DNA from: a virus
Lineage: Duplodnaviria; Caudoviricetes
Reading direction: 5' to 3' (one strand)
Length of the DNA: 64,000 nucleotides
Virus record (IMG/VR): IMGVR_UViG_3300033121_000493
Location: 96,001-160,000 of that record
How positions within the stretch are numbered: position 1 is the stretch's first letter; every line of letters starts with the position of its first letter. This document shows, piece after piece, positions 10,011-29,033 of the stretch. Below the pieces are notes generated by a model. That model did not search any database. It worked only from the letters and a program-made list of their open reading frames with translations, and was not told the DNA's origin. Both the position numbers and the translations under genes were made by a program.

Positions 10011-10084
10011 TGCGACCGGTGGGATTCGAACCCACAACGACTGGTTCCTAAGACCAGCGCCTCTGCCAGTTGGGCTACGGTCAC
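10011..10084 (-). tRNA. tRNA-Leu(TAG), short variable loop
   Basis: GTGACCG/CGGTCGC acceptor, CTGGT-CTTAGGA-ACCAG anticodon arm, GTGGG-TTCGAAT-CCCAC T arm; no encoded CCA. Confidence 0.9.
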
Positions 10085-10881: not shown

Positions 10882-11460
10882 TTACGCTTTTTCGATTTCT
10901 GTGTTCTCATTTTGGCTTTCCGTACTTGATGTGTGCGCGCCGCAAAAACAACTGCCTGGCGTAGATCGGCATAACTCAACGGCATGAGCGTACGGGCTAG
11001 ATAGGTCTTCCGTAGCACCAGGAAACGCTCGTAATATTTTTACCAACGAATGCAGAACGTGAGTTAACCGTTCATTGGCGGCTTCTGCTGCTTTACACAA
11101 ATCATGCGCGCTAGGCTTATCCGCTCGCCTCACAACAACTTCGTATCTATCATTGTGCACGGGCGAAGAGAATGTTGTGATGGTATAGTTGTAATCACCA
11201 TTTAGGGCGCGAAAGGATTCCACTAGACTAGACATGGTTTCACGAGCCACAGATAGAGCCACCTCGGTATCGGTTAAATCGATTACTTTCGGCTCGTACA
11301 CGCGTAACCGCGCTATCTCAGCATCTTTTTGACGTATGACCTTGCACACTTCATGCTGGCAATCATCGTGATGTGTTCTGTTATTAAGGGCTGCATTTTC
11401 ATCACGTAGTCGCTTAATCTCATTCAACAAATCACTAACATCGATAGCTGGCTCTTCCAT
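10882..11460 (-). CDS. Hypothetical coiled-coil phage protein
   Basis: LLNEIKRLRDEN, KDAEIARLR. Confidence 0.6.
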   Translation of the reverse strand: MEEPAIDVSDLLNEIKRLRDENAALNNRTHHDDCQHEVCKVIRQKDAEIARLRVYEPKVIDLTDTEVALSVARETMSSLVESFRALNGDYNYTITTFSSPVHNDRYEVVVRRADKPSAHDLCKAAEAANERLTHVLHSLVKILRAFPGATEDLSSPYAHAVELCRSTPGSCFCGAHTSSTESQNENTEIEKA

Positions 11461-11463
11461 ATA

Positions 11464-11796
11464 TCACGCTTTCGCATATTCAGTTGTAAGAACATTAAAA
11501 ATAGCCTGTGCCCATACTTCTGGGTCTAGCAATAGCGCATCTTCAAAAGATAGGGTTTTATCTGTCAGAGTTTCCAGTTCACTGATAACGACATGACGCC
11601 ATATAGGCATATCAGCGCAAAGCTTATCCCACAGTTTAGAGACAGCGTCAAGACTTTCAAAGTAATTTGGTATTTCCTGGAATCCGCGCGTAGGACCATA
11701 GCAACCAATCCACACGCCAAAATCGTTACACCTTATCTGCGAATAACCGGCGAACTCAGCCAATAGTCGCATCATGTGATCTCTCGTATCACTCAA
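11464..11796 (-). CDS. Phage protein resembling the ABA-sandwich family
   Basis: LAEFAGY ... IPNYFESLDAVSKL ... WAQAIFNVL. Confidence 0.5.
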   Translation of the reverse strand: MSDTRDHMMRLLAEFAGYSQIRCNDFGVWIGCYGPTRGFQEIPNYFESLDAVSKLWDKLCADMPIWRHVVISELETLTDKTLSFEDALLLDPEVWAQAIFNVLTTEYAKA

Positions 11797-14219
11797 AGGT
11801 TTCTCCTATGATAGTTTGTACTGTAGATACCAACTAATATGTGTTCCAGCCTAACGCCGTATGCGTTCATAATCGGCATAAGATCATACAGACTTACAAC
11901 ATTCTGGCGTACGTTGTTTATACAGTTAAGCCAAATGGTACAGCGTGAATCGCGATTCTGAGCGTTTAGACCATTAAAGACTAATATAGAACTATGTATG
12001 GACGCATTGTAAACCGATATAAATCGTATTTCTCGAGAACTAATCCACTGCGACATAATGGTCCACATATCCCAACAAAGAATTAAACAACGTTGTGCGC
12101 ACATTAGATGACTTGGTCATTAATTCACGCCTGCGTTTAGAGTATTGAGACATGCCATGCTCTATGTGTAGCGCCTGGTATATAAGCATACGACGGTCAA
12201 GATACAGATTTGTTCCATAAAACGCCCACTCGATGTCAAAAATAATCTCCTTACACATCCGCATCGTAGCAGTGTTTTTTTAAAAGGCGCTATTGTTTAA
12301 CCAAGATTTATACAGTCTCAGATTAAGCAGCCTAGTTACGCGCCAGATTTGCGCAGGTCCGCGAAACTGAGTAACGGTAAAGTACCCTTTAGCCACGCGA
12401 CCAGTTAGCAATTTAAACGTTTGGCATGTTTGGGCGACATCTAACCTAGTTTTAGTATAGATAACTTTAACATTCGCCCTATCATTGTACCATTCCTTAA
12501 AGTCTACTTCATAAGATGCCCACTTATCTGTCAACTGCATTTCTGGCCGCTCTACTACAGATTCGATAAATGTGTTCTCCTGCAAGTGGCATAAACTGGT
12601 CACACACAAGAAAATTGTCGCTAAGAAGAGCGAATGCGCTGTCCCATTTAACGCCCTGGCGCATATGCGATTTAAGCCGTGTACCCATCTTACTGTAAAG
12701 ATACCAAAACGTGAGTTTAGCGCAGGCCTAGCATACGGTATTTGAATACGATACAGTGTGTGCGTTAATGTGCCATTGATAGTTAACCAATCTTTTTTGC
12801 TAGAGTAATTAATTACTGCTATAAAACTAACAGAATTACTGGCGTATGCTCTGGAAAAAGCTTGCCGCACGATGTAGCACCATTGCGCACCTACCGTTTA
12901 TGCGCCGTATACGTCTTTCTGCGAAATTACTAATGCGAGGGGTTGGAAAACATTTAGGTTTAACGTTTGGCACTCTAACATAATACAACGTGTGTGTTGA
13001 CGCCATATTAATGGCTAGCCAGTTTTTTTCTTGCAAAACATTAATCGTTAAGGCTAGCAAAATAGCCTTACTGCCGAACGAACAAGGAGTGTTGCTCAAC
13101 CAGCTTTGCCTCGCAAATGTGTGCAATTCTATTGGCTACATGTGTGGTTATTATGGCGCGTATACCAGGCCGCGAACACAGCGAATATTCTTACGCATTT
13201 GCTAATTATAGAAGCGTGAACACGCTCGCCACGAACAGCTATGCGTTGCGCTAATGTACGTCTACCTAGAAACAGAACATAGCGATGTTCTCTTAAATCT
13301 GTGCGCTGCATCGTTACATTATCAACATCACGAGCGTAGACTAATACCCACCAAACAGGCATACAAACGTTCATCGTTGGTCTCTTTTCAGCTACACCTA
13401 AAAATGCGAGCGTGGTAAGTAACCAGACGCGACATTCCAACATAAACCTGGCTATGTTTACGCCATGCGCGCAGTATTGCGTGTTGATAGTCTGCCTCGT
13501 GCTCAATCAGAGTAAATGCATACCCACAAAAGCCCGCAAAGAAATACGGTATGGTTACTAATATACGCCCCTGCCATTTACGAAAATCAAAGTTAATTTC
13601 TACTGAACGTTGTATGCTACCTCGGCTGCCCATCTAAACCATCGCCTTTCGGGTATTACCCGCCTCTCCTTGGCACATACGTAGTACCAAATCTGCATGT
13701 AACTGCATTAATGCCATGCCATCAAACACAAAAGCTGGATGACGCTCGAAAAAAGAATCAAAAGCGGTGAACATACATACGTGAAAACCACCAGGCGTTA
13801 ATTCAAGCTGTTTTAAGTTGTAACCATTATCACACAGCACAGACCAGAATGAAACTTCTAGGGATGGTGTTAGCATGCGCCTGGCGTACTCATTGTGTGA
13901 CAAATATTAGTCAACGCGACACGACAGTGCTTTTATACGGGATCAAAGAACTCTACCTGAGCAAATTTCAATTATAAGCTTAGCTACAGGCCGCATAGCT
14001 ACACATACAGTGTGGTGTAAACCCGACACCTTTCGTGTAACAGCTAACCAATTAACTGAGCCAAAGGCTAAACAAACGTAGCATAGCAGCGCTGAAGACT
14101 TATTAAAGTACAAAGGTTGTATTAGACCTGACGCAATACAATGATGTAAAAAGCAAACCGATAGCGAACGGCGTCTCGCCGCGCGTTTAGGCATATAGAC
14201 CTACTAAGCGGCTAATAGC

Positions 14220-15347
14220 TCACGCCATAGTCGCCGATGGTGAATTGTACTGCGGCTGACCCCAGCCGATTCCTGTTAGCGTAGACAATATCGGATGGCG
14301 CTGGGCAAATTGCTGCTCCATAGCTGGCATAAGCCTTTCTCGTATGGCTTTCATTGCAGCCGGGTTTTTAAGGAAGTTGTCAATTTGGTTTTGCATAAAT
14401 GTAGGCGATGACATCGCGTTTCCGGCTCGCGCTGCGATCCAGTTACGCCCAATATCAGTATTAGTAGCCAGCCAGCTAGACAGTGCGCCGCCTAAAGCAG
14501 CAGAACCTGTCCACTTAGCTGCACCTCCAATATAAGGCAGAACACGTTTACCAAGAGCGCCCCAGTTAACTCCAGCATCTTTAACTTGGTACGCTTTAAT
14601 TGGAGAAGGTGACGCATATTCGCTACGTTGCTTTTGCTCTTTATACTTTTTGATATCTTCTTTTTCAGCTGTGTTACCGGCCATATTCCAGCCTGCATAA
14701 CCACCTAAAGCCGCTGACAATGTAGCCAGCGTGGCTAGCACGCCTGGAATCGTGTGCGTGAACGGGGTAGTCCAATTACCTAGTGGACTGGCGTCGGCTT
14801 GCTTTGCTTGCGCTATGGTATCTAATGATGGCTGTACTTCGCCGCGAATGTATTCGTCGGCTAGGTCATCAAGCATTGCAGCAAACTTGGTACCACGTTC
14901 AGACTTCAGGGCCGCGTCAAAAGACTTTTCAGCTGTATCCAGATCTTCATCATCTATCTTGCGCTTATGCGCTTTTACCAGTGCACCAGTTCCATACCAG
15001 CCACCTAGAGCAGGTAATAGTGCCGCAGCCAACATTGCCGGGTAGTACTTAGCCGGTAATGGATAGCTAGCTGTCGTATTCGTAGTGGATGGCACTGCGG
15101 GCGCGGACGCAGGGGCTTGTGCGGCTTTCACGCCTGTATTAAAAATGAACTCGCTAGGAGATACTTGTTCTGCTTTACGCTTAGCGTTGGTACGCTGCTG
15201 ATTGAATTTAATTACTTCCGGTATAGCCAGTACAGATCTAAGCCCAGCGCCAAGCAACAAAGAGTTTAGCGCAGTGTACTTCATGTCTTTACGGGCCAGA
15301 CTATCAAGAAACTCTTGTGCTTTATCTGGAGTTAGATTGCCGTCCAT
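14220..15347 (-). CDS. Putative virion-internal protein, Gly/Ala-rich hydrophobic segments separated by K-x-A sites
   Basis: Glycine-zipper-like segments; VKAA, TKFA, AKQA, VKDA; lies near the putative portal. Confidence 0.5.
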   Translation of the reverse strand: MDGNLTPDKAQEFLDSLARKDMKYTALNSLLLGAGLRSVLAIPEVIKFNQQRTNAKRKAEQVSPSEFIFNTGVKAAQAPASAPAVPSTTNTTASYPLPAKYYPAMLAAALLPALGGWYGTGALVKAHKRKIDDEDLDTAEKSFDAALKSERGTKFAAMLDDLADEYIRGEVQPSLDTIAQAKQADASPLGNWTTPFTHTIPGVLATLATLSAALGGYAGWNMAGNTAEKEDIKKYKEQKQRSEYASPSPIKAYQVKDAGVNWGALGKRVLPYIGGAAKWTGSAALGGALSSWLATNTDIGRNWIAARAGNAMSSPTFMQNQIDNFLKNPAAMKAIRERLMPAMEQQFAQRHPILSTLTGIGWGQPQYNSPSATMA

Positions 15348-15349
15348 AG

Positions 15350-15742
15350 TTATTTTCTCGCATAAGTAGGTGGTACTTCAACCTGCGCTGCGTCATATTT
15401 TACAAAGTCTATCCACTCTATGTAAACCTTCCAGTTACCATTATGACATTTTCTGTCTATAAACACAATAGCTGACTTACCACTAGTGGCATTCGTGTAT
15501 AGAGTAGAAACTAACTTTGTGTACTCATCAAGGTCTTTTTGGACAGCCAGATTAAACACAGCGGCGTGAAACACGCCACCTTTTTTTACGTTAGATTTTT
15601 CACCATTTCTATATAGCGGAGGACGCGCGCCTATAAATGGAGCGTCATTATCTCTGTTGAATACTTTTAGACCATTTTGATCTGGATGGTCCTGTCCAGA
15701 CATTATACGAATGATCTCATCATAACTGATCTGTCTGCTCAT
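15350..15742 (-). CDS. Hypothetical protein
   Basis: 130-aa ORF within the putative structural block. Confidence 0.7.
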   Translation of the reverse strand: MSRQISYDEIIRIMSGQDHPDQNGLKVFNRDNDAPFIGARPPLYRNGEKSNVKKGGVFHAAVFNLAVQKDLDEYTKLVSTLYTNATSGKSAIVFIDRKCHNGNWKVYIEWIDFVKYDAAQVEVPPTYARK

Positions 15743-17315
15743 CTGTTATACCGCTTCTTCTACGGATGTCAGCCGTCATTTGTCTATAGTAATCAGCTAA
15801 ATCTCGTTTACGTAAATCGTCAACATTATCAGACGTTACGGATAAGCCTTTTCTAGTTAAGCTGCCTAATCCAGCCCCAGCTATAAATGGGATTCCTAGT
15901 AGCGTAGCTATAGCCGTTGGACCTAATTTTGACAAACCCAACCCGCTGGCAATAGCGGCTGTAGTCATTTCACCAGATGTTGGTAAGGCTGCTGTGCCAG
16001 CTAGATTAGTAGCAGCAGCTGGTAGCGCTACAGCAGGATTAGCTTGCTTAGTAATCAGTTCATCTAAACTATCTGGCGTGTACCCTAGCTCTGCCATCTT
16101 AGTCAAAAATCCAACTTTAAATGCTTGCTTGCTATCCACGTTAGCGCCTTTCATAAATCCTTTTAAAGCTGAATATATTGTAGCTGCGCCTAGGGCTGTG
16201 TTCTTGAACCAACTAGGCGCGCCTAGCGCGCTAGACACAGCGTAAGCTGCACCGACGGTAGGAATAGCGTTACCTATTACATCAGGCAACGCAGATAGTA
16301 ACGAGCCCGGACTCGCGCCACCAGTAAGGCCGACACCTTGTTCATGCCCGGCCTGGGCTATCAGCTGCTTCATCTTAACCCGTTCCATCAGATTAGGATA
16401 CGGATTACGCTCAATCTCATCCATCGCAGTTGACACAGAAAAGCTAGGTCGCCAAAGCTGGTCGTTATAGCCATCTGCTTTCTTTGTCAACACATCAGGT
16501 AAATGTACCGGCGTGGCTGCAGGTAATTGAAACTCTGGCTGCGGCAGAGAATGCAACATCTGTGAGCGCCAATCAGAAAAGTTACGTACAGCTGGCGTAT
16601 TAAAGTAACCGCCATATAGCTTTTTGTGAACAGACGATTGCAGTAACCCTGGCAAACTTCCCAGCAGAATGCCAGCTAACGTCATAGTGGTACGCGATCT
16701 GGATGGGTCAAAGCCAAGACGCTCTAGAATAGGGCTACCTATAAATCTACCGCCCAGTCCGCCTAGCGCGCTACCGACACCCAATGTAACACCAGGCTGC
16801 TGAAACATACTATTAGCTTTCTTTTCAGCTAGTTCTATTGGGGTCTTGCTGCCGTCAGTAGAGCAGAAGGACAAATCAGTACACGAAAACTTAACGCCAG
16901 ATAACTTATCGTTACCAGCGTATGCTTGTCCTCTATCTTTTTTTACGTAAGCAAGTGTCACGTGAGGTACAAACCTTTTGCGCGTATCCACAACGTCTGT
17001 TTTATCCCGTACAGCATCTCGCAATCTTGAAAGACCGTCGCCGGTTACTGATACAAAAACCACATCGCCATCGTCATTAGAAAAGTAGTCAGTACTACCT
17101 AACTCCACATCACAACCGTACTGGTCTTGTAACGCAGCCTGTACACTGGCTACGTCATTATCCTTTATGCCGTACTGTACAGTTACATGGGGTTGTTTCT
17201 CAAATTCAACCACATCATCCTTATTGATAATCTGTAAAGCTAAATTGACAACGCGTTCAGCTATATCGCTGGGTAGGTCTAACTGAACAGAGCAGTACTT
17301 ATACGTATCAGACAT
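15720..17315 (-). CDS. Fusion of an N-terminal 2H phosphoesterase (Acb1/T4 gp57B-like) with a Gly-zipper-rich putative virion protein
   Basis: PHVTVQYG and PHVTLAY (two HxT motifs) within aa 1-165, followed by Gly/Ala-rich modules bounded by KKA, KKA, KGA and KQA. Confidence 0.8.
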   Translation of the reverse strand: MSDTYKYCSVQLDLPSDIAERVVNLALQIINKDDVVEFEKQPHVTVQYGIKDNDVASVQAALQDQYGCDVELGSTDYFSNDDGDVVFVSVTGDGLSRLRDAVRDKTDVVDTRKRFVPHVTLAYVKKDRGQAYAGNDKLSGVKFSCTDLSFCSTDGSKTPIELAEKKANSMFQQPGVTLGVGSALGGLGGRFIGSPILERLGFDPSRSRTTMTLAGILLGSLPGLLQSSVHKKLYGGYFNTPAVRNFSDWRSQMLHSLPQPEFQLPAATPVHLPDVLTKKADGYNDQLWRPSFSVSTAMDEIERNPYPNLMERVKMKQLIAQAGHEQGVGLTGGASPGSLLSALPDVIGNAIPTVGAAYAVSSALGAPSWFKNTALGAATIYSALKGFMKGANVDSKQAFKVGFLTKMAELGYTPDSLDELITKQANPAVALPAAATNLAGTAALPTSGEMTTAAIASGLGLSKLGPTAIATLLGIPFIAGAGLGSLTRKGLSVTSDNVDDLRKRDLADYYRQMTADIRRRSGITDEQTDQL

Positions 17316-17323
17316 AGTTACGC

Positions 17324-17830
17324 CTAGGCAAAAGGATTATGGCTAAACGTAGACGAATCAGTTAAGCGTGGCATTAACGACGCTCTTAGATAGGGATTTG
17401 TTAATGCTGTCTCTGGGCTAGCGCCAGGAGTACGCAAATATCTAGCCATATTAGGCGAGTATTGAGCTACAGTACCAGCTGCTTCTGCCATAGTTGGTGC
17501 TTTAGGAGCAAAGTGATCCAGAGCCGCAATGGCTGCACCTGTGCCTAGCGTAAACTTAGGAAAGCGATAAGCCCAATAAGCAGAACTTACTGGATCAAGG
17601 CCAAACCCAAAATTCGACAGCATCGCTGCGTTATCTGTAAATCTAGTTGAAGGCATAAATTTCGGTAGAAGCGTTTCTGTTTTATCGCCAAAGCTAAACA
17701 GCCGCTTAGCAAAATTGCCAACGTACGGCGATACTTTATTCCATAGAGGCTTAGCCGCTTGGCCAATGGCACCAATGCCTTCGCTTACAACATTAGCACG
17801 TTTAGCTATTAGCTCATTTAAAGTGTTCAT
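17324..17830 (-). CDS. Putative virion-internal protein
   Basis: N-terminal MNTLNELIAKRA leader. Confidence 0.5.
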   Translation of the reverse strand: MNTLNELIAKRANVVSEGIGAIGQAAKPLWNKVSPYVGNFAKRLFSFGDKTETLLPKFMPSTRFTDNAAMLSNFGFGLDPVSSAYWAYRFPKFTLGTGAAIAALDHFAPKAPTMAEAAGTVAQYSPNMARYLRTPGASPETALTNPYLRASLMPRLTDSSTFSHNPFA

Positions 17831-18126
17831 TTACTGCCTCTAAGCTTAGTGATAAGCTCATTTAGTCTGCTGTGCCGCTGGCTAGCAAGCTTTTCCAACC
17901 GGCTTATTATAGCCGGTGCTAACAAAGAAATCATAGCAAAAGCCGCCTCTTTCTTCACGTGCTGCGGCAAATCTGTGTGCTTAGTTGTGGCAAAATCTTT
18001 TGCATCCTGCTTAGACATAGACGATGCGGCTCGCTGCACTTCCGGCGAAGGATCTTTAAGCTTACCTTTTTGGGCCGCGCGTACCATACCCATAAAGCGT
18101 TGTTGAGCTACTGATTTAGCTGGCAT
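17827..18126 (-). CDS. DUF3008-like protein
   Basis: MPAKSVAQQRFMG ... SMSKQDAKDFATTKHTDLP matches the DUF3008 pattern MPAKSxAQQ ... SMSxxxxxxFAxTKxxxLP. Confidence 0.8.
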   Translation of the reverse strand: MPAKSVAQQRFMGMVRAAQKGKLKDPSPEVQRAASSMSKQDAKDFATTKHTDLPQHVKKEAAFAMISLLAPAIISRLEKLASQRHSRLNELITKLRGSK

Positions 18127-18136
18127 ATATAGATCC

Positions 18137-18694
18137 TTAGAAAGTAGTTCTGCTATTATTATGGTCTAGAAACGAATTTTGTAGATGAGCCTTAGTACCG
18201 TAATAAATCGTTTCTGGTATGGCCTTTAGTGTGTCCCAGCCGAGGCTTAGTACACTGGGACCACCAATCGTATTATTTTTTAACTGCTCCAATCCGATAC
18301 CGGCACCTAACTGAGCTCCAATGCCGCCAGGGACGGCAAAGCCAGCAGTATCTAAAAGCGATTGCGTAAACCGCTTATACCACGGCTGACTAGAGTACTG
18401 ATCCAAGCTATCAAACTTGCGCATATTCAATTTTGATTGATTAGCAGCCTGAGTTTTGTTAATAAGGTTTTGAGAACCATAACTCAACTGTGATCCTAGT
18501 GACCCAACGCCAAACCCATCTGTACCAAAAAAAGCTACTTTAGGTATTGGTGGCGCTGCCGGTTTACGTCGGCCAAGTGCCCACGGAGTTATTTTGTTGT
18601 TCAACAAGACTTTAGCGATCTGCCCCACATCTGGCTTATCAGAGTGCAGAACAGACGTATCAGCCGCTTGTTTGATAAGGGTTAATAGTGTCAT
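18137..18694 (-). CDS. Putative virion-internal protein
   Basis: MTLLTLIKQA leader; Gly-zipper GGIGAQLGAGIG. Confidence 0.5.
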   Translation of the reverse strand: MTLLTLIKQAADTSVLHSDKPDVGQIAKVLLNNKITPWALGRRKPAAPPIPKVAFFGTDGFGVGSLGSQLSYGSQNLINKTQAANQSKLNMRKFDSLDQYSSQPWYKRFTQSLLDTAGFAVPGGIGAQLGAGIGLEQLKNNTIGGPSVLSLGWDTLKAIPETIYYGTKAHLQNSFLDHNNSRTTF

Positions 18695-18732
18695 AGCCTG
18701 TAGTATAAATCTTCTGGCGTAGTTATCAAAAT

Positions 18733-19405
18733 CTAGAATCTCAACACTGTCATCATGCGGTCGTATAAACGCCGATAGTATAGAGATAAACTTCTGCGAT
18801 AACTGTACAGCTGGTCCGAAAAAGTAAATAGTGACATAAGCGACAACGAACGGGCAAAGTATATTTCTTTCGATTCATGTATACGGTTACTGTTGGTGTT
18901 GTAGTCAATACTTATGCGTATGTAGTTATCCGAATAGCGCTTATCGATTGTCATCGGCTAAAGAATTGCCTTTTTATCATGTAAACTACATGTTCTAAGC
19001 GATAATGAGCTCGTCGTGTAATTTGGCTAAATTGGATTGACTTAATGCGCATAAATCTTTGCGGGTAAAACCTTACACTTTGAGACCTACGATCTGTACG
19101 ACGAGCTACGCGTTTATTTCGTTGATCAAAATTTATAGTTACGCTAATGCCATATCTACCGTTTACGAGTTTAATCATAATTAGAAGTCGCCACGATACC
19201 TGTAGAATAGGCGCTGCAAAATACGCACCATAGACCAATGAACGCGAATAGGCATACCTCCACGCGCGCCAATAAACTGTATACGTTTCCGAGATCGACG
19301 CATCTGTGGATAAAATTGTACTTCTTTAGATTTACGAGGCTTAGGTAGGCTATTACAATTCACAGTCGTATAAATATTGTAAGCGGAGCACGTTGTTTTA
19401 AGCAT
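18733..19405 (-). other. Three short paralogous-looking ORFs (18733..18954, 18951..19238, 19181..19405)
   Basis: RRSQSVRFYPQ..RIKSIQF vs RKSKEVQFYPQ..RKRIQF vs ESKEIYF. Confidence 0.5.
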
Positions 19406-19596
19406 TTTTAACCAAAAAGATAAGAGTTGAGTTAAACGCAGTTTTTTGCAGCGTCACTAGTTGCCAAACAAGCGGTGCTGTATATCGAGTAATAATAAGA
19501 CGTGTGGCTACAAACATATTAAAATCAGTGTTACTGTTTGTAGTGATTACATCTTTAGATCTAGACTCAGTATGTTCAGTCGTGATAGACTTCGTG

Positions 19597-21408
19597 TTAC
19601 TGGCCTCCGGCCATTTGCTGCAGCACTTGCTCTTGTCCAATGCTGCGCGCTTGTGTTCTGAGATTTGACAATTTTTGTTTAACCACGGCGTGCAGCGTCT
19701 CGTCTTGTTGCTTAATAGCAGACAGCTGACGTCTACGCTCACCTTCAGGAATTACTGATAACTGCTGGGCGATCTGATCAGCTTGGCCCAACACATCAGC
19801 TGGTGTTACTCCACCGCCCTGAGCACTACCTGGAGCCCCCATACCACCACCAGCCCCACCACCTGGGGCCACTGGAGCACCGCCTGGTGGCATCATACCG
19901 CCCTGCATAACTTGATTAGTTTCTGCTAGACGTTTATCCATTTCCTGCTGCTGCTGTTGCTCGCGCTGCATCTTAGTTGTTTCATCGCGGAGCATGCGCT
20001 GCTCGTCAAACATACGACGAATCTCTTCGCGAACATCGATACCAAACGGACTCAATGCTGTGGTATCAGATATCTTTTGCGCTGCAGCAAGCTGTAATCT
20101 AACAACGCGCGCTTCCATATCGTCTGCGCGTGAAATAGGTGTCAGCCGAGCTCTAGCTGGCTCCCAGTTGAGTGACGCTGCAAGAATACCCATAAGCCAA
20201 TTTAAAAATTTGTTAAGCGCAGCAATTAAATGCGGCCACGTAGATTCAAATAATCTTAGCGCAGCTGGAAGAGCTTGTAGTTGCAGCGATCCCTTATATA
20301 GATCCGCTGGAACACCGCACGAATTTAGCAACTCATCTAGCCCTAACGTTAGCAAATCACTGGGAGCGAGCTCTCTACCTTCACCGCTTAGGGCTTGATA
20401 CTCTATTGGAAACGGCAAAACGTGAACGCTGAGCGGGTCAATACGGTGTTCACGAATCATAGTTTCAACAAAATTACCAAAGTCGCCTAAGTTGGCCTGT
20501 AGCAACGGATCAATCTTATCAGCGCCACGTGGACCACCTGGCGTTATAACGCGCCAAGGCACAATATAGTCTAATGCCAAAGCTTCATTATACCTCTTAA
20601 GTACTTGTACATAAAAGGCTTGTCTAAAGTTAGACATAGCTCGTGGAATACCCCAGCCTCTATTTTCAAACCCAGCTAAAGTATCCTCACGCATGTGATG
20701 TATCATGTCATCAAAAAACGCGAACAAAGTGTTATCATACGCGGCTCTTATGAGCTCATCTGGCATATTCTGAATGTAGAAAGGCGTACCTAATTGTACG
20801 TGTCTACGCATATCCCCAGTAGGACGCAGCAGGTATTCTGCTGTATGGGAAATAGGGTGAAACATTAACTGAATGTTGTGCGGGTTCCACCGAACAATCT
20901 TAAACTTGTCGTGCTCCATAGTAGAACGGTCGATTGATTCGAGCTCGCCGGTGGCTTTGCACTTTTGACATTTACCGTAGTATTTCAACTGCTTAAAAGT
21001 ATAGATTACTTTATCAATAGGCTGCTCGAACCTACACGACTTACAGCTTAGATACCGACGAAACGGTATGTATGGGCTACTAAACGAGTTACCATAAAAC
21101 AAAAAGTCAAGAGCGACTGAACGCAACAATGACGTAATGTCTAGACTATCGTTCAAAAACTCTTTGTACTTTTTCTTTACACCGTCAGGCACATCCAATA
21201 TTTCAACTTCTGTTAGAAAGTATGAGCATACTCGCTCCATAGCCATACGATAAGTGCCGTTGCCAGACCACAGCATTTCGCACATGGTCAGCATAGAACT
21301 TATGTTGTTGGGAGCGTATAGCGAGCCCTGGTCAAAGAACGGGTTACCAAACCACTGCGTAGGCTGCGACCCGCCAATGCCTAGAGACGAATTTGGAGAT
21401 TCTGACAT
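19597..21408 (-). CDS. Putative portal protein with a zinc-ribbon insert and Q/G-rich C-terminus
   Basis: 603 aa; LDFLFYGNSF, IVRWNPHNI, IHHMR, RGWGIP, YQALSGEG..LAP, LLNSCGVPADL resemble portal-fold features. Assigned from pattern and context. Confidence 0.6.
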   Translation of the reverse strand: MSESPNSSLGIGGSQPTQWFGNPFFDQGSLYAPNNISSMLTMCEMLWSGNGTYRMAMERVCSYFLTEVEILDVPDGVKKKYKEFLNDSLDITSLLRSVALDFLFYGNSFSSPYIPFRRYLSCKSCRFEQPIDKVIYTFKQLKYYGKCQKCKATGELESIDRSTMEHDKFKIVRWNPHNIQLMFHPISHTAEYLLRPTGDMRRHVQLGTPFYIQNMPDELIRAAYDNTLFAFFDDMIHHMREDTLAGFENRGWGIPRAMSNFRQAFYVQVLKRYNEALALDYIVPWRVITPGGPRGADKIDPLLQANLGDFGNFVETMIREHRIDPLSVHVLPFPIEYQALSGEGRELAPSDLLTLGLDELLNSCGVPADLYKGSLQLQALPAALRLFESTWPHLIAALNKFLNWLMGILAASLNWEPARARLTPISRADDMEARVVRLQLAAAQKISDTTALSPFGIDVREEIRRMFDEQRMLRDETTKMQREQQQQQEMDKRLAETNQVMQGGMMPPGGAPVAPGGGAGGGMGAPGSAQGGGVTPADVLGQADQIAQQLSVIPEGERRRQLSAIKQQDETLHAVVKQKLSNLRTQARSIGQEQVLQQMAGGQ

Positions 21409-21461
21409 ATGTAACTCTTCTACGTGTAGCTATAAAAAGAGTAGTATACACTACCAGCGTA

Positions 21462-22100
21462 CTAATTGTCAGCTGATAGCTTAGCGAATGATACCGTCTT
21501 TATACAAACAGTGGGGATTTCTACACTTACACCGCAGTGTTTTACTTTGTGTTCGGCATTACTGCCATCGCTTAAAAGAATAACTAGAGTGAAATCGCTG
21601 CCTATGGGCGGCTCAAAGTGTAAGTCATCGTCGCCAACTGTGGTGGAGAACACCAGCGTTATAAGATTGTCGTCGGCAATAACATCAGCCGGACGCGTTT
21701 TAAACTTACCAAAGTCACCAACCATAGTAACTTGCATAGGGCGGTCAGCATACTTTGGAAATGGCGTACCACTAGAAGTAGTTTCTTCTCTAACTACTAC
21801 CGGCGGCAGCACTGGCTGCGTGGCTACTACTGAACGTTTAGTGGCTGCTGTCTTTTTTTTAGCGCTGTTTTGTGGCGAAGGCGATTCAGACTCGGCCGAT
21901 ATAGTCGTAGACTGACCGATGGTCTGTAGCGGAATAGTGATTATGCCATTTGCCGAATTCATATCTGGCCTACCACCTTCTGAATCTTTATACGAACTAG
22001 GTATTACGGTCATACCTTGTTCGTGGTCTCTGTAATACTGGTTATTACGCTCTACGCCTTCAGCGCCTAACAGTGAACTTAGATCTTTCGCCGCTTTCAT
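21462..22100 (-). CDS. Hypothetical protein
   Basis: 212-aa ORF with GAGG RBS. Confidence 0.75.
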   Translation of the reverse strand: MKAAKDLSSLLGAEGVERNNQYYRDHEQGMTVIPSSYKDSEGGRPDMNSANGIITIPLQTIGQSTTISAESESPSPQNSAKKKTAATKRSVVATQPVLPPVVVREETTSSGTPFPKYADRPMQVTMVGDFGKFKTRPADVIADDNLITLVFSTTVGDDDLHFEPPIGSDFTLVILLSDGSNAEHKVKHCGVSVEIPTVCIKTVSFAKLSADN

Positions 22101-22191
22101 ATTTACCTCAATCGTGTAGCGCGCTACAGTCTATGATCCCTAAAAATTTGCCAACTGTTTAATCGTAGTTTTGCCCACTCGGGCTTGTGAC

Positions 22192-22261
22192 AGTAACTAG
22201 TATAGTGTCAGCCTGATTTGCTTCAAATAGGAAGCGTACAGGAGATACCATACTAGTTACT
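22192..22261 (-). ncRNA. Long imperfect hairpin downstream of tRNA-Lys (unknown structured element)
   Basis: Perfect 12-bp AGTAACTAGTAT/ATACTAGTTACT closing stem plus inner CCTG/CAGG and GCTTC/GAAGC helices. Confidence 0.45.
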
Positions 22262-22300
22262 ATACTCTACCACGCTGAATACGTCCAGCTGGCTACATAC

Positions 22301-22373
<73 letters not shown>

Positions 22374-22376
22374 GTA

Positions 22377-22430
22377 CCACACTGCGCGTAAACCACAGAG
22401 CCATTACTGGCAGGGAAAAGCACGGTGTGG
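22377..22430 (-). ncRNA. Inter-tRNA structured element E1
   Basis: 11-position terminal stem (one mismatch, one G-U), internal loop, GCCA-GUAA-UGGC GNRA hairpin. Confidence 0.6.
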
Positions 22431-22433
22431 AAA

Positions 22434-22506
22434 TAGGAGTGGGTGGAATCGAACCACCGACCTAGACTTTATAAGAATCTTGCTCTTACCACTGAGCTAC
22501 ACTCCC
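22434..22506 (-). tRNA. tRNA-Ile(TAT)
   Basis: GGGAGTG/CACTCCT acceptor; AGATT-CTTATAA-AGTCT. Confidence 0.9.
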
Positions 22507-22507
22507 A

Positions 22508-22569
22508 TTCATACCGCGCGTAGCGGGAAAAGGCCATTACTGGCCGCGACGTTGAATGCGCAGTATGAA
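22508..22569 (-). ncRNA. Inter-tRNA structured element E2 (paralogue of E1)
   Basis: 12-bp terminal stem UUCAUACUGCGC/GCGCGGUAUGAA, internal loop, GGCCA-GUAA-UGGCC hairpin. Confidence 0.6.
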
Positions 22570-22571
22570 CA

Positions 22572-22645
22572 TGGGCCTAGCAGGGCTCGAACCTGCGACA
22601 AAGGGATTATGAGTCCCCTGCTCTGACCAACTGAGCTATAGGCCC
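22572..22645 (-). tRNA. tRNA with CAT anticodon, Ile2-like (elongator Met not excluded)
   Basis: GGGCCTA/TAGGCCC acceptor; GGGGA-CTCATAA-TCCCT; overall resemblance to bacterial tRNA-Ile2. Confidence 0.85.
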
Positions 22646-22867
22646 AAAAAACCCCGTAACTTGCCCTAAAGCCCTAATAAGGCTTGCGTTACAGCAAGCA
22701 GCCACTACTATTGGAACAGGCTTGTTTGAGGCCGGTACAGGTAACGGGGGCGTCAAGCAAGATCGCCAAGACTATAATAGTGACAATATTGTCACACCCA
22801 GCTTTCTTGCTTGTTTCCTACATAACACTTGACCTACTAGTAACTATACGACTAGCAGGCTTAAGTC

Positions 22868-23290
22868 TCAACTGCGCCAAAACGACTTACACAGACTCGC
22901 AAAAGAAGCTTTAATACGATGCCACCAGGATGCGGATTTTTGCTTTAGTCGTTTTGCTTCGTCATCAAAATCGCCTAGTGCTGCGCCGAGGCATATAATG
23001 TTATGCCCGGCTAGCGCAGCATTGTAAGAAGTGTAACGACGACTACCAGATGCAATCTCGGCACCAGCGAGGTTATTCTCGTTACGCACAAACGTCGCTG
23101 TAGACCAGAGTACCGGGTCTCCTTCTACAGTAGAATCAGTAGCTACACCTAGAAAAATTGTACTGACTATAACGTGCTCGAAAAAAACACAACCTACATC
23201 AAATCTTCCAGTAGCACCTTGTGCCATAGTTAGCTGGGATGACGGAACTTTTACCGGATTATTATCGTCATCTAGTATGTAATAATTCAT
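22868..23290 (-). CDS. Conserved phage hypothetical protein
   Basis: YYILDDDNNPV ... VSTIFLG ... PVLWST ... RRYTSYNAALAGH. Confidence 0.7.
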   Translation of the reverse strand: MNYYILDDDNNPVKVPSSQLTMAQGATGRFDVGCVFFEHVIVSTIFLGVATDSTVEGDPVLWSTATFVRNENNLAGAEIASGSRRYTSYNAALAGHNIICLGAALGDFDDEAKRLKQKSASWWHRIKASFASLCKSFWRS

Positions 23291-23475
23291 ACGCGCCTAT
23301 TTGCAGCGGCCTGCTTTTCTTCTGCTAGACGTAACTTGATATCACCACTCAGTTTAAGAAGTGGGTAGATTACTTCTTCTTGTAACCGCCGCTTCTCGTC
23401 TTGTGTTAAGCCGTACAGAGACACCCCGGTTAGCTTAAAATATGCCTCTTGTAACAGCTGGTTGGCTAGTACCAC
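23287..23475 (-). CDS. Hypothetical protein
   Basis: 62-aa ORF overlapping the next start by 4 nt. Confidence 0.55.
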   Translation of the reverse strand: MVLANQLLQEAYFKLTGVSLYGLTQDEKRRLQEEVIYPLLKLSGDIKLRLAEEKQAAANRRV

Positions 23476-23478
23476 TAA

Positions 23479-23592
23479 TCACCGCTTAGCGCTGTGTAGT
23501 AACACAGCCAGCGTAAACGAACACGCGAAGATAATTAGCGTTATGGTTGTAATTGTAGAAACAACTTTCGGTTCGAAAAGGATGGTTGCCAT
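23479..23592 (-). CDS. Small membrane peptide (37 aa)
   Basis: MATILFEPKVVSTITTITLIIFACSFTLAVLLHSAKR; start placed just after tRNA-Gln. Confidence 0.4.
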   Translation of the reverse strand: MATILFEPKVVSTITTITLIIFACSFTLAVLLHSAKR

Positions 23593-23594
23593 AT

Positions 23595-23665
23595 TAGGGC
23601 TACCTGGTGTCGAACCAGGGACTGCTGGTCCAAAGCCAGCCGCGTTACCGCTACGCCATAGCCCT
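23595..23665 (-). tRNA. tRNA-Gln(TTG)
   Basis: AGGGCTA/TAGCCCT acceptor; GCTGG-CTTTGGA-CCAGC. Confidence 0.93.
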
Positions 23666-23675
23666 GAAAAACCCT

Positions 23676-23941
23676 GACTCATTTAGGTCACCTATAAATG
23701 TGTAAAATAATTACACGTACAGGTTGAACTGCTGCCAGTATGCGTATGCATCCGCTACTGGCACAACGAGTGACGCCTATATAAGTCAGGTACATAGTAG
23801 CAGACTGCGTGTTAATAGCTGTCTACTTTTAGGTCGACAGCTACACCGTAGTGGCTGTGCCAGTACGTCTTAAGTCTGCTACCTCTATAAAGTTGCAAGC
23901 ACTACGGTGCTGGATTTTTCAGCCGCACACCTAAGTGATTC
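23676..23941 (-). ncRNA. Unknown ~265-nt highly paired (pseudoknotted) RNA between tRNA-Arg and tRNA-Gln
   Basis: Three perfect 10-bp crossing complementary pairs, an 8-bp hairpin and an end-to-end stem; no ORF. Strand inferred from the flanking tRNAs. Confidence 0.65.
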
Positions 23942-23946
23942 CAACA

Positions 23947-24020
23947 CGTGCCCGGAGGGACTTGAACCCCCAGTTAGGGGATTAGAAATCCCCTGTTTTG
24001 TCCAATTAAACTACGGGCAC
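23947..24020 (-). tRNA. tRNA-Arg(TCT)
   Basis: GTGCCCG/CGGGCAC acceptor; GGGGA-TTTCTAA-TCCCC. Confidence 0.93.
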
Positions 24021-24042
24021 AATGCAAGCGGTCAAGAATCAA

Positions 24043-24580
24043 TCATGGCAATACGATCAAACCGTACATAGGACTGGAATTCATTATTGCACAAATCTTG
24101 GTAACTAAGTCTATATCAGACTGTAGCACCACCCATGATTTATGAATTCGACCGCCGCAATTAACACACCTATCAAAAACGAGCTCCGCACACATCAGCT
24201 TTACTACACCTGGCGTATCGGCGGTTATGCTATATGTGCTGTCAGTAAACAGTAAGGAATTTACTATCGCCACGCAATGCATACGCGTAATCACAGTATA
24301 CGGCAATTTGCGTAAAATGGCATTAACCTAGCTACAGTTTGCGGGCTAATGTACGGTATATATGATGCATACGATAGAGCAGATCTAGCCACATATCAGA
24401 GTGTAACTTTCCCCAGAAAGAGATGCGGTGGTTATAGAGTACGTTAAAGTAGTGGTTTGTATGTATAAGTATTGGATTTACCCAGTAATTAGGACGTTTG
24501 CGCTTTATTACACGGGTAGCTCTAGGAAAGATGGATGAGCGCCCATTGTACACGATAAACTTAACGGCTAGACTTTCCAT
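24043..24580 (-). other. Two short hypothetical ORFs (24043..24306, 24332..24580)
   Basis: Same character as the other short R/Y/I-rich ORFs. Confidence 0.45.
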
Positions 24581-24894
24581 GTAATAACAACGTTCCAGCC
24601 ATATTGTGAGCCGTAATCACAACTCTCGCAACCGCGATAGCTTATGTTATCGACATCGTCGATATCTGCTACATCATCACCAAGTGCTTCTTTGATGACA
24701 CCAGCAATAGACTTGTATTTGTCACGTACCGTAGGAACCTCGTACATTCTTGTGATTGTTAGCCTAGACTTATTTGGTTTATCGGTTGGTTTAAGATTTA
24801 ACTTCATGCCAACCAAGTCTGGATCTGACCCAAAATCTACATGCGGCTTAAGCAAATTATATAACTCAGTGCTAGTATAAGTACGAACTGCCAT
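24568..24894 (-). CDS. Phage hypothetical protein (GCESCDYG motif)
   Basis: 108 aa, GGAG RBS, C-terminal GCESCDYG. Confidence 0.75.
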   Translation of the reverse strand: MAVRTYTSTELYNLLKPHVDFGSDPDLVGMKLNLKPTDKPNKSRLTITRMYEVPTVRDKYKSIAGVIKEALGDDVADIDDVDNISYRGCESCDYGSQYGWNVVITWKV

Positions 24895-24925
24895 GCCCGG
24901 ACTCCATATAGTGATAAACCACGAA

Positions 24926-24998
24926 TGGGTGAGAAGGGAGTCGAACCCTCACTGAAGGGTTTTTAAAACCCCTGCCTCTGCCGTTGGGCTACCCACCC
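24926..24998 (-). tRNA. tRNA-Leu(TAA), short variable loop
   Basis: GGGTGGG/CTCACCC acceptor; GGGGT-TTTAAAA-ACCCT. Confidence 0.9.
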
Positions 24999-25013
24999 AC
25001 TACAAGAAATGAT

Positions 25014-25086
25014 TAGCGGAGGCTGGACTCGAACCAACGACCTCCAGGTTATGAGCCTGGCGAGCTACCGACTGCTCTACCCCGCC
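25014..25086 (-). tRNA. tRNA-Met(CAT), initiator-like
   Basis: GGCGGGGTAGAGCAGTCGGTAGCTCG resembles the tRNA-fMet D arm; CCAGG-CTCATAA-CCTGG has only two of the three G-C initiator pairs. Confidence 0.88.
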
Positions 25087-25098
25087 ACTAAGACAAAG

Positions 25099-25167
25099 TC
25101 GTGACACTAGGATTCGAACCTAGAACTTCTACGATGTAGACGTTTTGTTTCATTAAACTACATCACG
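25099..25167 (-). ncRNA. tRNA-like RNA with an anticodon arm 4 nt short (pseudo-tRNA or tRNA mimic)
   Basis: Acceptor CGTGATG/TGTCACG, D stem GTTT/AAAC, perfect T arm CTAGG-TTCGAAT-CCTAG, but anticodon arm TCTAC-ATC-GTAGA. Confidence 0.75.
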
Positions 25168-25171
25168 GTTT

Positions 25172-25242
25172 AGCCTTCTGTAGGAATCGAACCTACATCA
25201 GCTGATTACAAATCAGCCGTTTTGCCGTTAAACTAAGAAGGC
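25172..25242 (-). tRNA. tRNA-Thr(TGT)
   Basis: GCCTTCT/AGAAGGC acceptor; GCTGA-TTTGTAA-TCAGC. Confidence 0.95.
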
Positions 25243-25333
25243 GTCGCATCCAGTGGGTTACGTAGACCGCCTACGTTGAGGGCCACTGGATGGAGTGAGG
25301 AGTTTATCAATGCAGCAATTTGGAGTCAAACTG

Positions 25334-25870
25334 CTACACGGCGGACGTTGGCTCTGTGTTTTGTTGTGTTGTCTGGTCGGATTGCTCGACAGTTGGTTCA
25401 GCGGTGGAGCTGGCCTGTGGGCGCTCCGTGTTCATGAACGCAACAAACTCGTCGTTGTAGTCGTCGATCAGCGAGTCAAAGACAGCCCAGAATTTTGGTT
25501 CTTCTCTAGCCACGTGCTTAATATCTTGTAGTATTAAACTTAACGAGTAATCTTCTTCGACTGCGTATGCTCTTGCCAGGCAAAATAAATCAATAAACAT
25601 TCGTATGCGGGTCTCCGGTCGTACGGTGAGCGGCATACTATGAATCATAGTCTTCAATTCCAGTAGCTTTAACGTAACTGCGTCTTCAACCAGCGGCGGG
25701 TTGTCATCGTCTAGTTCCGATTTGTTACAAAGACAGAAATTGTCTGTTTTGTTACTCACGGCAAAACGATTTTCAATATCAATCATCTTAAAAGCAATGT
25801 AAACAGACAGTAACATACTGGCAACGGCGATAATAGCAAAATATATGTCCACCAACTCTCCTTTGGCCAA
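25334..25870 (-). CDS. Hypothetical protein with an N-terminal transmembrane helix
   Basis: IYFAIIAVASMLLSVYIAF. Confidence 0.7.
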   Translation of the reverse strand: MAKGELVDIYFAIIAVASMLLSVYIAFKMIDIENRFAVSNKTDNFCLCNKSELDDDNPPLVEDAVTLKLLELKTMIHSMPLTVRPETRIRMFIDLFCLARAYAVEEDYSLSLILQDIKHVAREEPKFWAVFDSLIDDYNDEFVAFMNTERPQASSTAEPTVEQSDQTTQQNTEPTSAV

Positions 25871-25894
25871 TAGCTAAAAATTTTGCGTGTGACA

Positions 25895-25933
25895 GAACAA
25901 ATGTAGCCCGCCCCCACACACGGGGCGGGCTAC
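25895..25933 (-). terminator. GC-rich hairpin, probable terminator
   Basis: 12-bp GTAGCCCGCCCC/GGGGCGGGCTAC stem followed by ATTTGTTCT on the minus strand. Confidence 0.55.
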
Positions 25934-26041
25934 GCTCAACACAGACAACAAAGTCAAGTTTGGCTGGTGAATAAACTTGAATAGTTCAAGCTATTACACA
26001 GTCAAACTTAAAAAGACGTGCTCGCGCCGTGGGTCGACCAA

Positions 26042-26077
26042 TTAGTTGGCTTCGTCAAAGAAATTGAAAGTTTTCAT
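26042..26077 (-). CDS. Minigene MKTFNFFDEAN
   Basis: GAAAGGAGGTTAGCC-ATG: perfect SD with 6-nt spacing. Confidence 0.55.
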   Translation of the reverse strand: MKTFNFFDEAN

Positions 26078-26160
26078 GGCTAACCTCCTTTCTACTTGAA
26101 AAAGGTGACAAAGCGACAGGTGGCACGCTTCAAGCGGTTCGTACCAAATGAACAAAGTAG

Positions 26161-26187
26161 CTACGCGTAACCGTCAAACATAGACAT
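26161..26187 (-). CDS. Minigene MSMFDGYA (or MFDGYA)
   Basis: TAGGAGGTGA-ATG-TCT-ATG: perfect SD. Confidence 0.5.
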   Translation of the reverse strand: MSMFDGYA

Positions 26188-26643
26188 TCACCTCCTATTC
26201 TTACGCTGCGGCGAAATACCGCCTACAGCTTGCTGCGTTTGCTTACAGGCTGCTTATGCCTGTAGCGCGCTACCGACAGGCCGGCAACAATACCGACAAA
26301 TCCGCCAGCAACACACCCAAAAAATGCAAACAAAGCCCACCAGCCGATGCTGACCGCTACAGGTAGTGTCATCACCGGCCCTTCGCGGCGGCTGCGATGA
26401 TGCCGAACAAGACCAGCAGAAAAATAAGCAGCGTGGACAGAAAACACGCGTCTGGCCACTCAAGAAGTGCCAACATGATTTGCTCTCGCATATGAGACGT
26501 GTTTGACGCCGAACTCAAACCCAAGAGCTAGCAATTTGGCAGCGCAAAAAGCCAACTCTTGGGTTTTACAATCTGCAATAACTACGCGCCCGAAAAAGGT
26601 AACCGACGTGTCGACTACCTCGAACGGCGCTACGTTACTACAG

Positions 26644-28021: not shown

Positions 28022-28501
28022 TTACTTCCTTGGAGGCTTGGCAGGCATGGAGAATGTTCGTTTATTAGAATCACTCTTCACAGCCTGGTTTGGTTCTGGT
28101 TGCGGAACGCTCGGCGGCGTATCATTTGTGCTAGCAAGTAACTGGGCTACTTGTAGTCTAGCGCTTATGTCCACGGCGTAAGCGTCGTCAAGTGTCATTA
28201 CAGCTACAGCGAGAATCTCAGTGACCTGAACATACGTATCGCCGTTTTGCTGTATGACTAGAGAACTGGAAGTTATTACAGGACTGGTGCCTGGAGCAAC
28301 AGTCATTTTATTTTCGTCGGCCCACTTGTTGAACTCTTCGTCAACTGGTGGCTGCTCAGAGACAAGTTCCCACTCAGAGCCAGCGGCCCTGTAAACAGTT
28401 ACCGAACTTAACTTTATCAGTTTAATAGGCTTATTGGCTGCGCTAGAAAGCACGATCGATTCTCCCCCGGCTGGTAAGAATTTTCTGCGCACAATCAACA
28501 A
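28022..28501 (-). CDS. Hypothetical protein
   Basis: 159-aa ORF. Confidence 0.7.
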   Translation of the reverse strand: MLIVRRKFLPAGGESIVLSSAANKPIKLIKLSSVTVYRAAGSEWELVSEQPPVDEEFNKWADENKMTVAPGTSPVITSSSLVIQQNGDTYVQVTEILAVAVMTLDDAYAVDISARLQVAQLLASTNDTPPSVPQPEPNQAVKSDSNKRTFSMPAKPPRK

Positions 28502-29033
28502 TGTGTGACGGCGCAGTGTCCCAGACCAGCTTAGCGGGTAGGCCGGGAACTATGTTTAGCTTGCCCTTATTGCCAACGGGCAAAAATACCTGCACACGCG
28601 CCGGTAGCGCGCTAGAGGTGAGAATGAGATCCTCACCTATGTCCTCAACGTCGATGATCCTCGAATGGGTAAACCAAACAAGGTTTTTATTGGCGCTATA
28701 AAAACCTAGAGTACTGACATACCCTGCAAAGGCATCCCAGGCCTCTAGGTTTATAGCTTCCACATAGCGTCCCCAATTGTACACGCCGCTGATCACCGTT
28801 TTGCGGTAATCAATTATGACGCGATCCTGTATGCCTGCTTCCAGTTCAAACTGATCTGGAATGCTGTAGGCAATACCGGCGTGTACGTACAGGGGAGCTA
28901 AAGAAAACATCGCATATTGTCCAACTACTTCTCGTACTGACGCTGGTCGAATTGTTTTGATTTCACGACGTTGTGCACGTCGAGTATCGTGGATTTCACG
29001 CGACCAAGTGTCATCAGAGTTTCGTATAAACAC
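28443..29033 (-). CDS. Hypothetical protein
   Basis: 196-aa ORF. Confidence 0.7.
   Translation of the reverse strand: MFIRNSDDTWSREIHDTRRAQRREIKTIRPASVREVVGQYAMFSLAPLYVHAGIAYSIPDQFELEAGIQDRVIIDYRKTVISGVYNWGRYVEAINLEAWDAFAGYVSTLGFYSANKNLVWFTHSRIIDVEDIGEDLILTSSALPARVQVFLPVGNKGKLNIVPGLPAKLVWDTAPSHIVDCAQKILTSRGRIDRAF

Follow-up and report, generated by a model that had tools for sequence, protein, structure and literature searches.

The gap between two tRNA genes, tRNA-Arg(UCU) and tRNA-Gln(UUG), in the genome of an uncultivated phage is filled by a non-coding and unusually structured element that lies on the same strand as the tRNAs. This 280-nt element, referred to as X, is interpreted with moderate confidence as a discrete structured RNA that is excised from the transcript of a minus-strand tRNA operon, and which is predicted by folding models to have a ground state of three domains. 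One (B) of the three perfect 10-bp helices that can be drawn in X is part of this predicted fold; the other two (A and C) have no place in it, yet are too improbable to be the product of chance. The window, i.e. the whole stretch of 64,000 nucleotides that was analysed, corresponds to bases 96001-160000 of a single IMG/VR phage record of 202,582 bp, which is rated complete. X extends from 23666 to 23945 of this window on the minus strand, such that an RNA position p is 23946 minus the window coordinate (Table 1).

All sizeable ORFs of the window are found on the minus strand, as are its tRNAs, nine of which are detected by ARAGORN and supplemented by one further tRNA-like match to Rfam. As both of the tRNA genes flanking X are on the minus strand, this can be taken as the RNA sense of X as well. 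The element accounts for the whole of the gap between these two genes and sits inside a 10-tRNA island, and no second copy exists in the 202.6-kb genome. None of the ten tRNA or tRNA-like genes in the window (10010-25242) encodes a CCA end, which implies that the phage depends on a CCA-adding enzyme and on 3' maturation that is either of the RNase Z type or exonucleolytic. RNase Z acts on CCA-less precursors, while RNase P acts at the 5' ends of tRNAs. X would be co-transcribed with the tRNAs in one precursor, from which the maturation of its two neighbours would release it. Its 5' end would arise through an RNase Z-type cut, or through trimming by an exonuclease, behind the CCA-less tRNA-Arg, and its 3' end through cleavage by RNase P at the 5' end of tRNA-Gln.

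Table 1. Position of X, its flanking genes, the helices that can be drawn in it and the domains of its predicted fold
Feature	Window coordinates	RNA positions	Strand	Remarks
X, structured non-coding RNA	23666-23945		-	MFE -111 kcal/mol, z -7.24; no Rfam match; single copy in genome
tRNA-Arg(UCU), upstream flank	23946-24021		-	ARAGORN; Rfam 67.1 bits; no encoded CCA; 3' end sets the 5' end of X
tRNA-Gln(UUG), downstream flank	23595-23665		-	ARAGORN; Rfam 65 bits; 5' end sets the 3' end of X
Helix A	23756-23765 / 23856-23865	181-190 / 81-90	-	Perfect, 10 bp; crosses B and C; rivals hairpin E
Helix B	23797-23806 / 23873-23882	140-149 / 64-73	-	Perfect, 10 bp; present in the MFE fold, unlike A and C
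Helix C	23844-23853 / 23900-23909	93-102 / 37-46	-	Perfect, 10 bp; crosses A and B; rivals the domain 1 hairpin
Helix D	23816-23823 / 23836-23843	103-110 / 123-130	-	Perfect, 8 bp
Helix E	23733-23740 / 23756-23763	183-190 / 206-213	-	Perfect, 8 bp
Helix F, end-closing stem	23679-23688 / 23929-23938	8-17 / 258-267	-	9 of 10 paired, one mismatch
Domain 1, imperfect hairpin	23892-23945	1-54	-	-18.6 kcal/mol; segment c (RNA 37-46), which supplies the 5' strand of helix C, forms the 3' arm
Domain 2, three-way junction	23791-23889	57-155	-	-39.5 kcal/mol; closed by B, extended to about 15 bp
Domain 2 contents		79-99; 100-137	-	MFE fold: weak hairpin 79-99 (segments a, c'); hairpin D 100-137
Domain 3	23673-23790	156-273	-	-49.4 kcal/mol; closed by 14-bp stem 156-170/259-273
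Domain 3 contents		178-217; 219-257	-	MFE fold: hairpin E 178-217 (arms a', a2; loop GAUGCAUA); hairpin G 219-257
3' tail GUUUUUC	23666-23672		-	Single-stranded; directly before the 5' end of tRNA-Gln (RNase P site)

No convincing sign of coding capacity can be discerned in X. An initial annotation of this DNA had stated that no ORF was present, and indeed there is no credible one, as stops are found in every frame; this statement should nevertheless be amended to take account of a single 35-codon ATG frame (23688-23795), which is not preceded by a Shine-Dalgarno sequence. The same annotation had not recognised the class to which the RNA might belong, and the comparison with Rfam that it proposed agrees with this, since release 15 yields no match on 23666-23945 either at gathering scores or at E values up to 10. 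This includes the models of RNase P RNA, 6S RNA, SRP RNA, self-cleaving ribozymes and riboswitches, none of which matches X, and the tRNA clan, of which neither Rfam (E up to 10) nor ARAGORN finds a member inside these coordinates. The reported lack of tmRNA, RNase P and SRP hallmarks is thus borne out by these searches. A mimic of tmRNA, whether in one piece, in two pieces or devoid of the tRNA domain, can be rejected on the same grounds: ARAGORN identifies no tmRNA in X, the tmRNA families of Rfam give no match at E values up to 10, and the three minus-strand frames contain no tag-like frame. A Y RNA or YrlA acting with Ro60 (Rsr) was similarly discarded, as X does not match RF02553 and a search of the whole phage genome for the TROVE domain (PF05731), at E values up to 1, found none while matching its controls.

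Further evidence that X is an RNA comes from its folding energy. The MFE of the minus strand is -111 kcal/mol, corresponding to a z score between -7.2 and -7.5, and no shuffled sequence equals it. Ten non-coding stretches were compared within the island, and X is by far the most structured of them, the remainder having minus-strand z scores between -1.3 and -4.5. The plus strand reaches only -98.3 kcal/mol, making the minus strand 13 kcal/mol more stable, and when the minus-strand structure, which contains six G-U pairs, is mirrored onto the plus strand, it has an energy of -97.7 kcal/mol. This asymmetry favours the hypothesis that selection has operated on the transcribed strand. In the ensemble of the nested nearest-neighbour model, the probability of pairing is 0.99 for B, 0.94 for D and 0.96 for E, and is approximately zero for A, C and F.

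Folding of successive prefixes gives the same three domains at every length of the transcript. Hence the computed domains, each of them independently stable, would form in the order of transcription: the 5' hairpin, then the junction closed by B, and lastly the 3' domain with its U-rich tail. Both ends of the molecule would be buried in or beside helices, as in a nuclease-resistant stable RNA, and X might persist in a compact form. A hairpin at about 23690-23724 that had been noted previously is present in the MFE fold as 23689-23727, and the 8-bp hairpin at 23816-23823/23836-23843, as well as the alternative partner proposed at 23733-23740, are both perfect over 8 bp. The stem thought to close the ends of the RNA fares less well, in that nine of its ten positions pair and one is mismatched.

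The 14-bp stem that closes domain 3 (RNA 156-170/259-273) is followed by GUUUUUC; it encloses an 88-nt branched domain, with the tRNA directly after, and a scan for terminators called none on the minus strand at the 3' end of X. A run of G followed by U5 ends two spacers of the island, at 22647-22654 (before the tRNA-Met at 22646) and at 23666-23674 (before tRNA-Gln); a long closing stem precedes it in both. The common feature may represent a leader for RNase P or a module that protects 3' ends.

The island in which X is found covers 4.3 kb (22101-26459) and comprises nine tRNAs, one tRNA-like gene, four small ORFs and several structured spacers. In related phages the genes on either side of it are neighbours, so that it represents an insertion. 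The 603-aa ORF at 19597-21408 encodes the portal protein, which has hundreds of metagenomic relatives, the closest of them 72% identical. On the contigs of four relatives (five loci), the stretch running from the ribonucleotide reductase gene to that of the portal is collinear with the window, but the segment 22101-26459 is missing, and among portal relatives of 36-72% identity no tRNA island is observed at this place. The number of tRNAs in 13 near-complete relatives varies between 0 and 38. A comparison with 5.8 billion proteins gave no homologue of the island ORFs of 140 aa and 178 aa, and these two ORFs and the portal have each been seen on one contig only. The 108-aa ORF (24568-24894) is one member of a small family, as yet unnamed, of proteins about 100 aa in length, represented by 24 distant relatives among 1.8 billion representatives and characterised by a common C-terminal motif, G-C-E-[ST]-C-D-Y-G-S-x-Y-G; no Pfam or PHROG family matches it, and the contigs of its relatives are too short to show their context. 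Given that the island is missing from related phages and its ORFs are orphans, X could be young or neutral.

That the island is an accessory insertion also accords with a purely cis-acting role for X, in which the element would insulate the tRNAs from misfolding, present clean sites to RNase Z and RNase P and then be degraded. Other spacers of the island are structured as well (z scores of -2.9 for E1, -4.4 for E2, -4.5 for 22101-22300 and -3.6 for 25243-25333), and no partner or target of X could be found. However, E1 and E2 manage with about 60 nt, and many tRNAs in the island are just 4-13 nt apart, such that 280 nt with a z score of -7 and three perfect 10-bp helices far exceed what insulation would need. 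This explanation is therefore considered rather unlikely.

Two further structures in the island are of note. The 200-nt spacer at 22101-22300, downstream of tRNA-Lys, has a z score of -4.5 and contains an 18-bp hairpin with 89% complementarity (22192-22209/22244-22261). At 25903-25933 there is a strong terminator-like hairpin on the minus strand, with a 12-bp stem that includes 10 G-C pairs, and downstream of it are promoter-like sites at 25329-25301 and 24323-24295; together these may mark the transcription units of the island. An apparent promoter-like repeat, TATAG(A/G)(G/T)G, which is repeated three times, was set aside, as its other occurrences are scattered in coding DNA and their flanks are not conserved.

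The helices A, B and C had been described as perfect, 10 bp long and mutually crossing, and this is exactly what is observed: all of their pairs are Watson-Crick, and each helix crosses the other two. The shuffling test suggested by the initial annotation shows how exceptional this is. Dinucleotide shuffles of the 280 nt contain a mean of 0.05 helices of at least 10 bp, with three such helices occurring in none of 20,000 shuffles, and five helices of at least 8 bp are found in just 0.07% of shuffles. Moreover, when six points are joined in pairs, only one of the 15 possible pairings has all three connections crossing mutually. For single helices of this length the genome is close to shuffled sequence, with 5.8% of 280-nt windows containing one or more, as against 4.8% of shuffles. 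There are only two places in the 202 kb where three fall within 280 nt, namely X and 28681-28886. The latter is inside a conserved protein-coding gene (28443-29033), homologues of which are present in four relatives, and two of its repeats overlap and are mutually exclusive. This implies that clusters of this kind are rare, but that by themselves they are no proof of an RNA gene.

Forcing A, C or F into the fold raises the energy to -91.5, -100.1 or -92.8 kcal/mol respectively, the cost being 19.5 kcal/mol for A and 10.9 kcal/mol for C. The near-zero probability of A and C is explained by each of their arms having a local competitor: c pairs with RNA 9-19 in domain 1, a with c' in the hairpin 79-99, and a' with a2 in hairpin E. 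These local pairings are worth between -7 and -19 kcal/mol each, and the three hairpins together about -38 kcal/mol. In the sequence itself, segment c' matches the 5' arm of the hairpin of domain 1 at eight of 10 positions, and segment a repeats the 3' arm of E. If the four arms of A and C are left unpaired, the rest of X folds at -73.5 kcal/mol, and the long-range duplexes A and C have energies of -15.7 and -15.8 kcal/mol including initiation, with the pair adding approximately -31 to -40 kcal/mol. The sum of these terms implies that a state containing B, A and C is at best about level with the nested fold at -111 kcal/mol, before any penalty for loops.

These figures bear on the proposal that A, B and C all pair, either simultaneously or alternately, which would make X a multiply pseudoknotted or switching RNA. 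Of these three helices, the model places only B. The proposal draws on the perfection of the three helices, each of exactly 10 bp and jointly far beyond chance, and on the near equivalence of the knotted and nested states before loop penalties; furthermore, judging from the geometry implied by the coordinates, B and C alone would constitute an H-type pseudoknot that is sterically unremarkable, its loops measuring 17, 19 and 37 nt. Against it stand the price of forcing A or C and the local competitors of every one of their arms, and three mutually crossing full-turn helices are topologically demanding in one chain. The proposal is considered improbable. A and C are more plausibly selected alternative, tertiary or possibly intermolecular pairings, which would form once the local competitor hairpins open. 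Within the preferred model of a stable excised RNA they would act as conditional pairings, with A connecting the loop at the centre of domain 2 to domain 3, and C connecting it to domain 1.

A more speculative variant would have A and C form between molecules. The central loop (RNA 81-102) of one molecule would then bind two other copies, one by its 3' domain and the other by its 5' domain, with the palindrome AUGCAU adding a symmetric kissing contact, so as to generate a chain or a closed homo-oligomer. This palindrome is held in the 8-nt loop of hairpin E, GAUGCAUA (23745-23752; RNA 194-201), a layout like that of retroviral dimerisation-initiation hairpins. Cofolding of two copies gains 9.7 kcal/mol, although through a swap of hairpin E and the closing stem of domain 3, with A and C unused. 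Such an assembly, which would resolve the awkward topology of three crossing helices if it were true, is regarded as very improbable.

That the inverted repeats act instead in DNA, as protein-binding or recombination sites, as an origin-like element or as the product of template switching (a quasipalindrome) arising in the absence of selection on RNA, would suit A, B and C equally well, because their purely Watson-Crick pairs are the same on both strands, and the example of 28681-28886 demonstrates that such clusters need not be RNA genes, but it is highly unlikely in view of the 13 kcal/mol advantage and the G-U pairs of the fold on the transcribed strand, the lack of iterons and of any AT-rich stretch, a GC content (0.45) like that of the genome, a cumulative GC skew that is steady through this part of the window, and the inability of crossing repeats to extrude together as cruciforms.

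No support can be found for the suggestion that X pairs in trans with the spacers E1 and E2. The complementarity between the UACUGGCA segments of X and the GCCAGUA of E1 and E2 does exist, but it is not above the level expected by chance. The word UGCCAGUA occurs seven times in the window against an expectation of 2.45, a count reached by two of 100 shuffles, and GCCAGUA lies within a GNRA hairpin of E1 and E2 themselves (GCCA-GUAA-UGGC). Local alignment of X with E1, E2 or their complements is not significant (z between 0.1 and 2.1). The best duplexes of X with E1 and E2 are equalled by 28% and 57%, respectively, of shuffled versions of these spacers, and cofolding brings no gain. The trans pairing accordingly does no better than its controls, and the idea that X, E1 and E2 constitute a new RNA-based system finds neither a partner nor a target. 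An antisense regulator was also considered and rejected, since its antisense matches to phage mRNAs, four in number and 13-14 nt long, are all in mid-gene and fall within the background of random genomic windows (P ~0.06), and no significant paralogy links X to other spacers. If X does have a function in trans, the best guess is that it serves as a stable decoy or scaffold rather than as an antisense regulator.

The distribution of X outside this genome was studied through several types of search. Applying blastn to 50,697 GenBank phages gave no match with a 901-nt query, and with the 280-nt query at E values up to 10 a single 34-nt match attributable to chance. Among 50 IMG/VR relatives blastn found no homologue of X, the recurrent 16-nt matches being coincidences with coding sequence (collagen-like and other coding repeats), and a covariance model, R1, built from X and its MFE structure (self score 347 bits) had no match in the same 50. 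IMG/VR, JGI metagenomes and species genomes were also scanned with exact and gapped patterns, namely the central 22-mer, the tRNA-Arg/tRNA-Gln pair with a gap of 283-313 nt, the anticodon arm of each tRNA, the motif common to E1 and E2, and the arms of helix B; the matches were few, and all of them were due to chance. One candidate, a gap of about 289 nt after tRNA-Arg(UCU) in a relative with 38 tRNAs (G044, L108:5328-5616), proved to be an 88-codon gene with a Shine-Dalgarno sequence; in most of the long gaps of this relative's island, one frame runs without stops through the entire gap or the greater part of it, so that these gaps are probably small ORFs. X is thus known from one metagenomic genome, with no relative in GenBank phages, the 50 IMG/VR relatives or JGI metagenomes. 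As no homologue was found, none of its base pairs has covariation support, and for now it should be treated as a candidate rather than as a family.

The interpretation favoured above was already contained in the initial annotation, which had proposed a non-coding RNA excised with the tRNAs, and it is the best reading of an element that fills a gap between tRNAs on their strand, does not encode protein, is structured and belongs to no family. The most similar arrangement is that of phage T4, where two genes annotated as small stable RNAs, rnaD (119 nt) and rnaC (139 nt), come next to tRNA-Arg on its 3' side and on the same strand. Their products, known as the species 1 and 2 RNAs, were described half a century ago and presumably owe their release to the enzymes of tRNA processing. 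The T4 pair resembles X in being non-coding RNA in a phage tRNA cluster and on the tRNA strand, with both rnaD and X starting 1 nt after tRNA-Arg; in its size, 264 nt in all compared with the 280 nt of X; and in having no Rfam family. By contrast, rnaC (species 1) ends in a tRNA-like T arm and acceptor, whereas X has no tRNA-like module, and the T4 pair is less structured (z -4.1) and located at the end of its cluster, rather than between two tRNAs. Running model R1 over the T4 region with filters off gave a best score of 5.6 bits (E 0.19), for a 24-nt hairpin outside rnaC and rnaD. The resemblance is hence one of position only, and could be a coincidence.

Other comparisons can be made with larger phage RNAs and with the spacers of bacterial tRNA operons. 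ROOL (RF03087) and GOLLD (RF01998) are, like X, complex structured RNAs encoded by phages, and also by prophages, and are often found near tRNA islands; many members of GOLLD exceed 800 nt, and some of the pseudoknots predicted in ROOL and GOLLD turned out to be intermolecular contacts in homo-oligomers (PMC12286853). Both are much larger than X, widespread and supported by covariation, whereas X is a single orphan of 280 nt that matches nothing in Rfam at an E value of 10. Were X to form a homo-oligomer, it would represent a compact counterpart of the ROOL and GOLLD assemblies. In E. coli, the 3' external transcribed spacer of the glyW-cysT-leuZ operon, of about 50 nt, acts as a sponge for small RNAs by base pairing. 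X may be likened to such spacer RNAs as a stable by-product of tRNA processing that may act in trans, but these pair with known small RNAs, while X has no significant complementarity to phage transcripts or to E1 and E2.

X therefore seems best placed as an orphan of a loose kind, the structured passenger RNAs of phage tRNA operons, and in no defined family. Phage tRNA islands continue to yield structured RNAs that have escaped annotation, of which X is an extreme case with regard to its predicted structure. Its perfect 10-bp pairings, which exclude one another, are statistically striking as a set. If they do form, X would be naturally bistable, pseudoknotted or self-assembling, and its length of only 280 nt makes it tractable both for probing and for cryo-EM.
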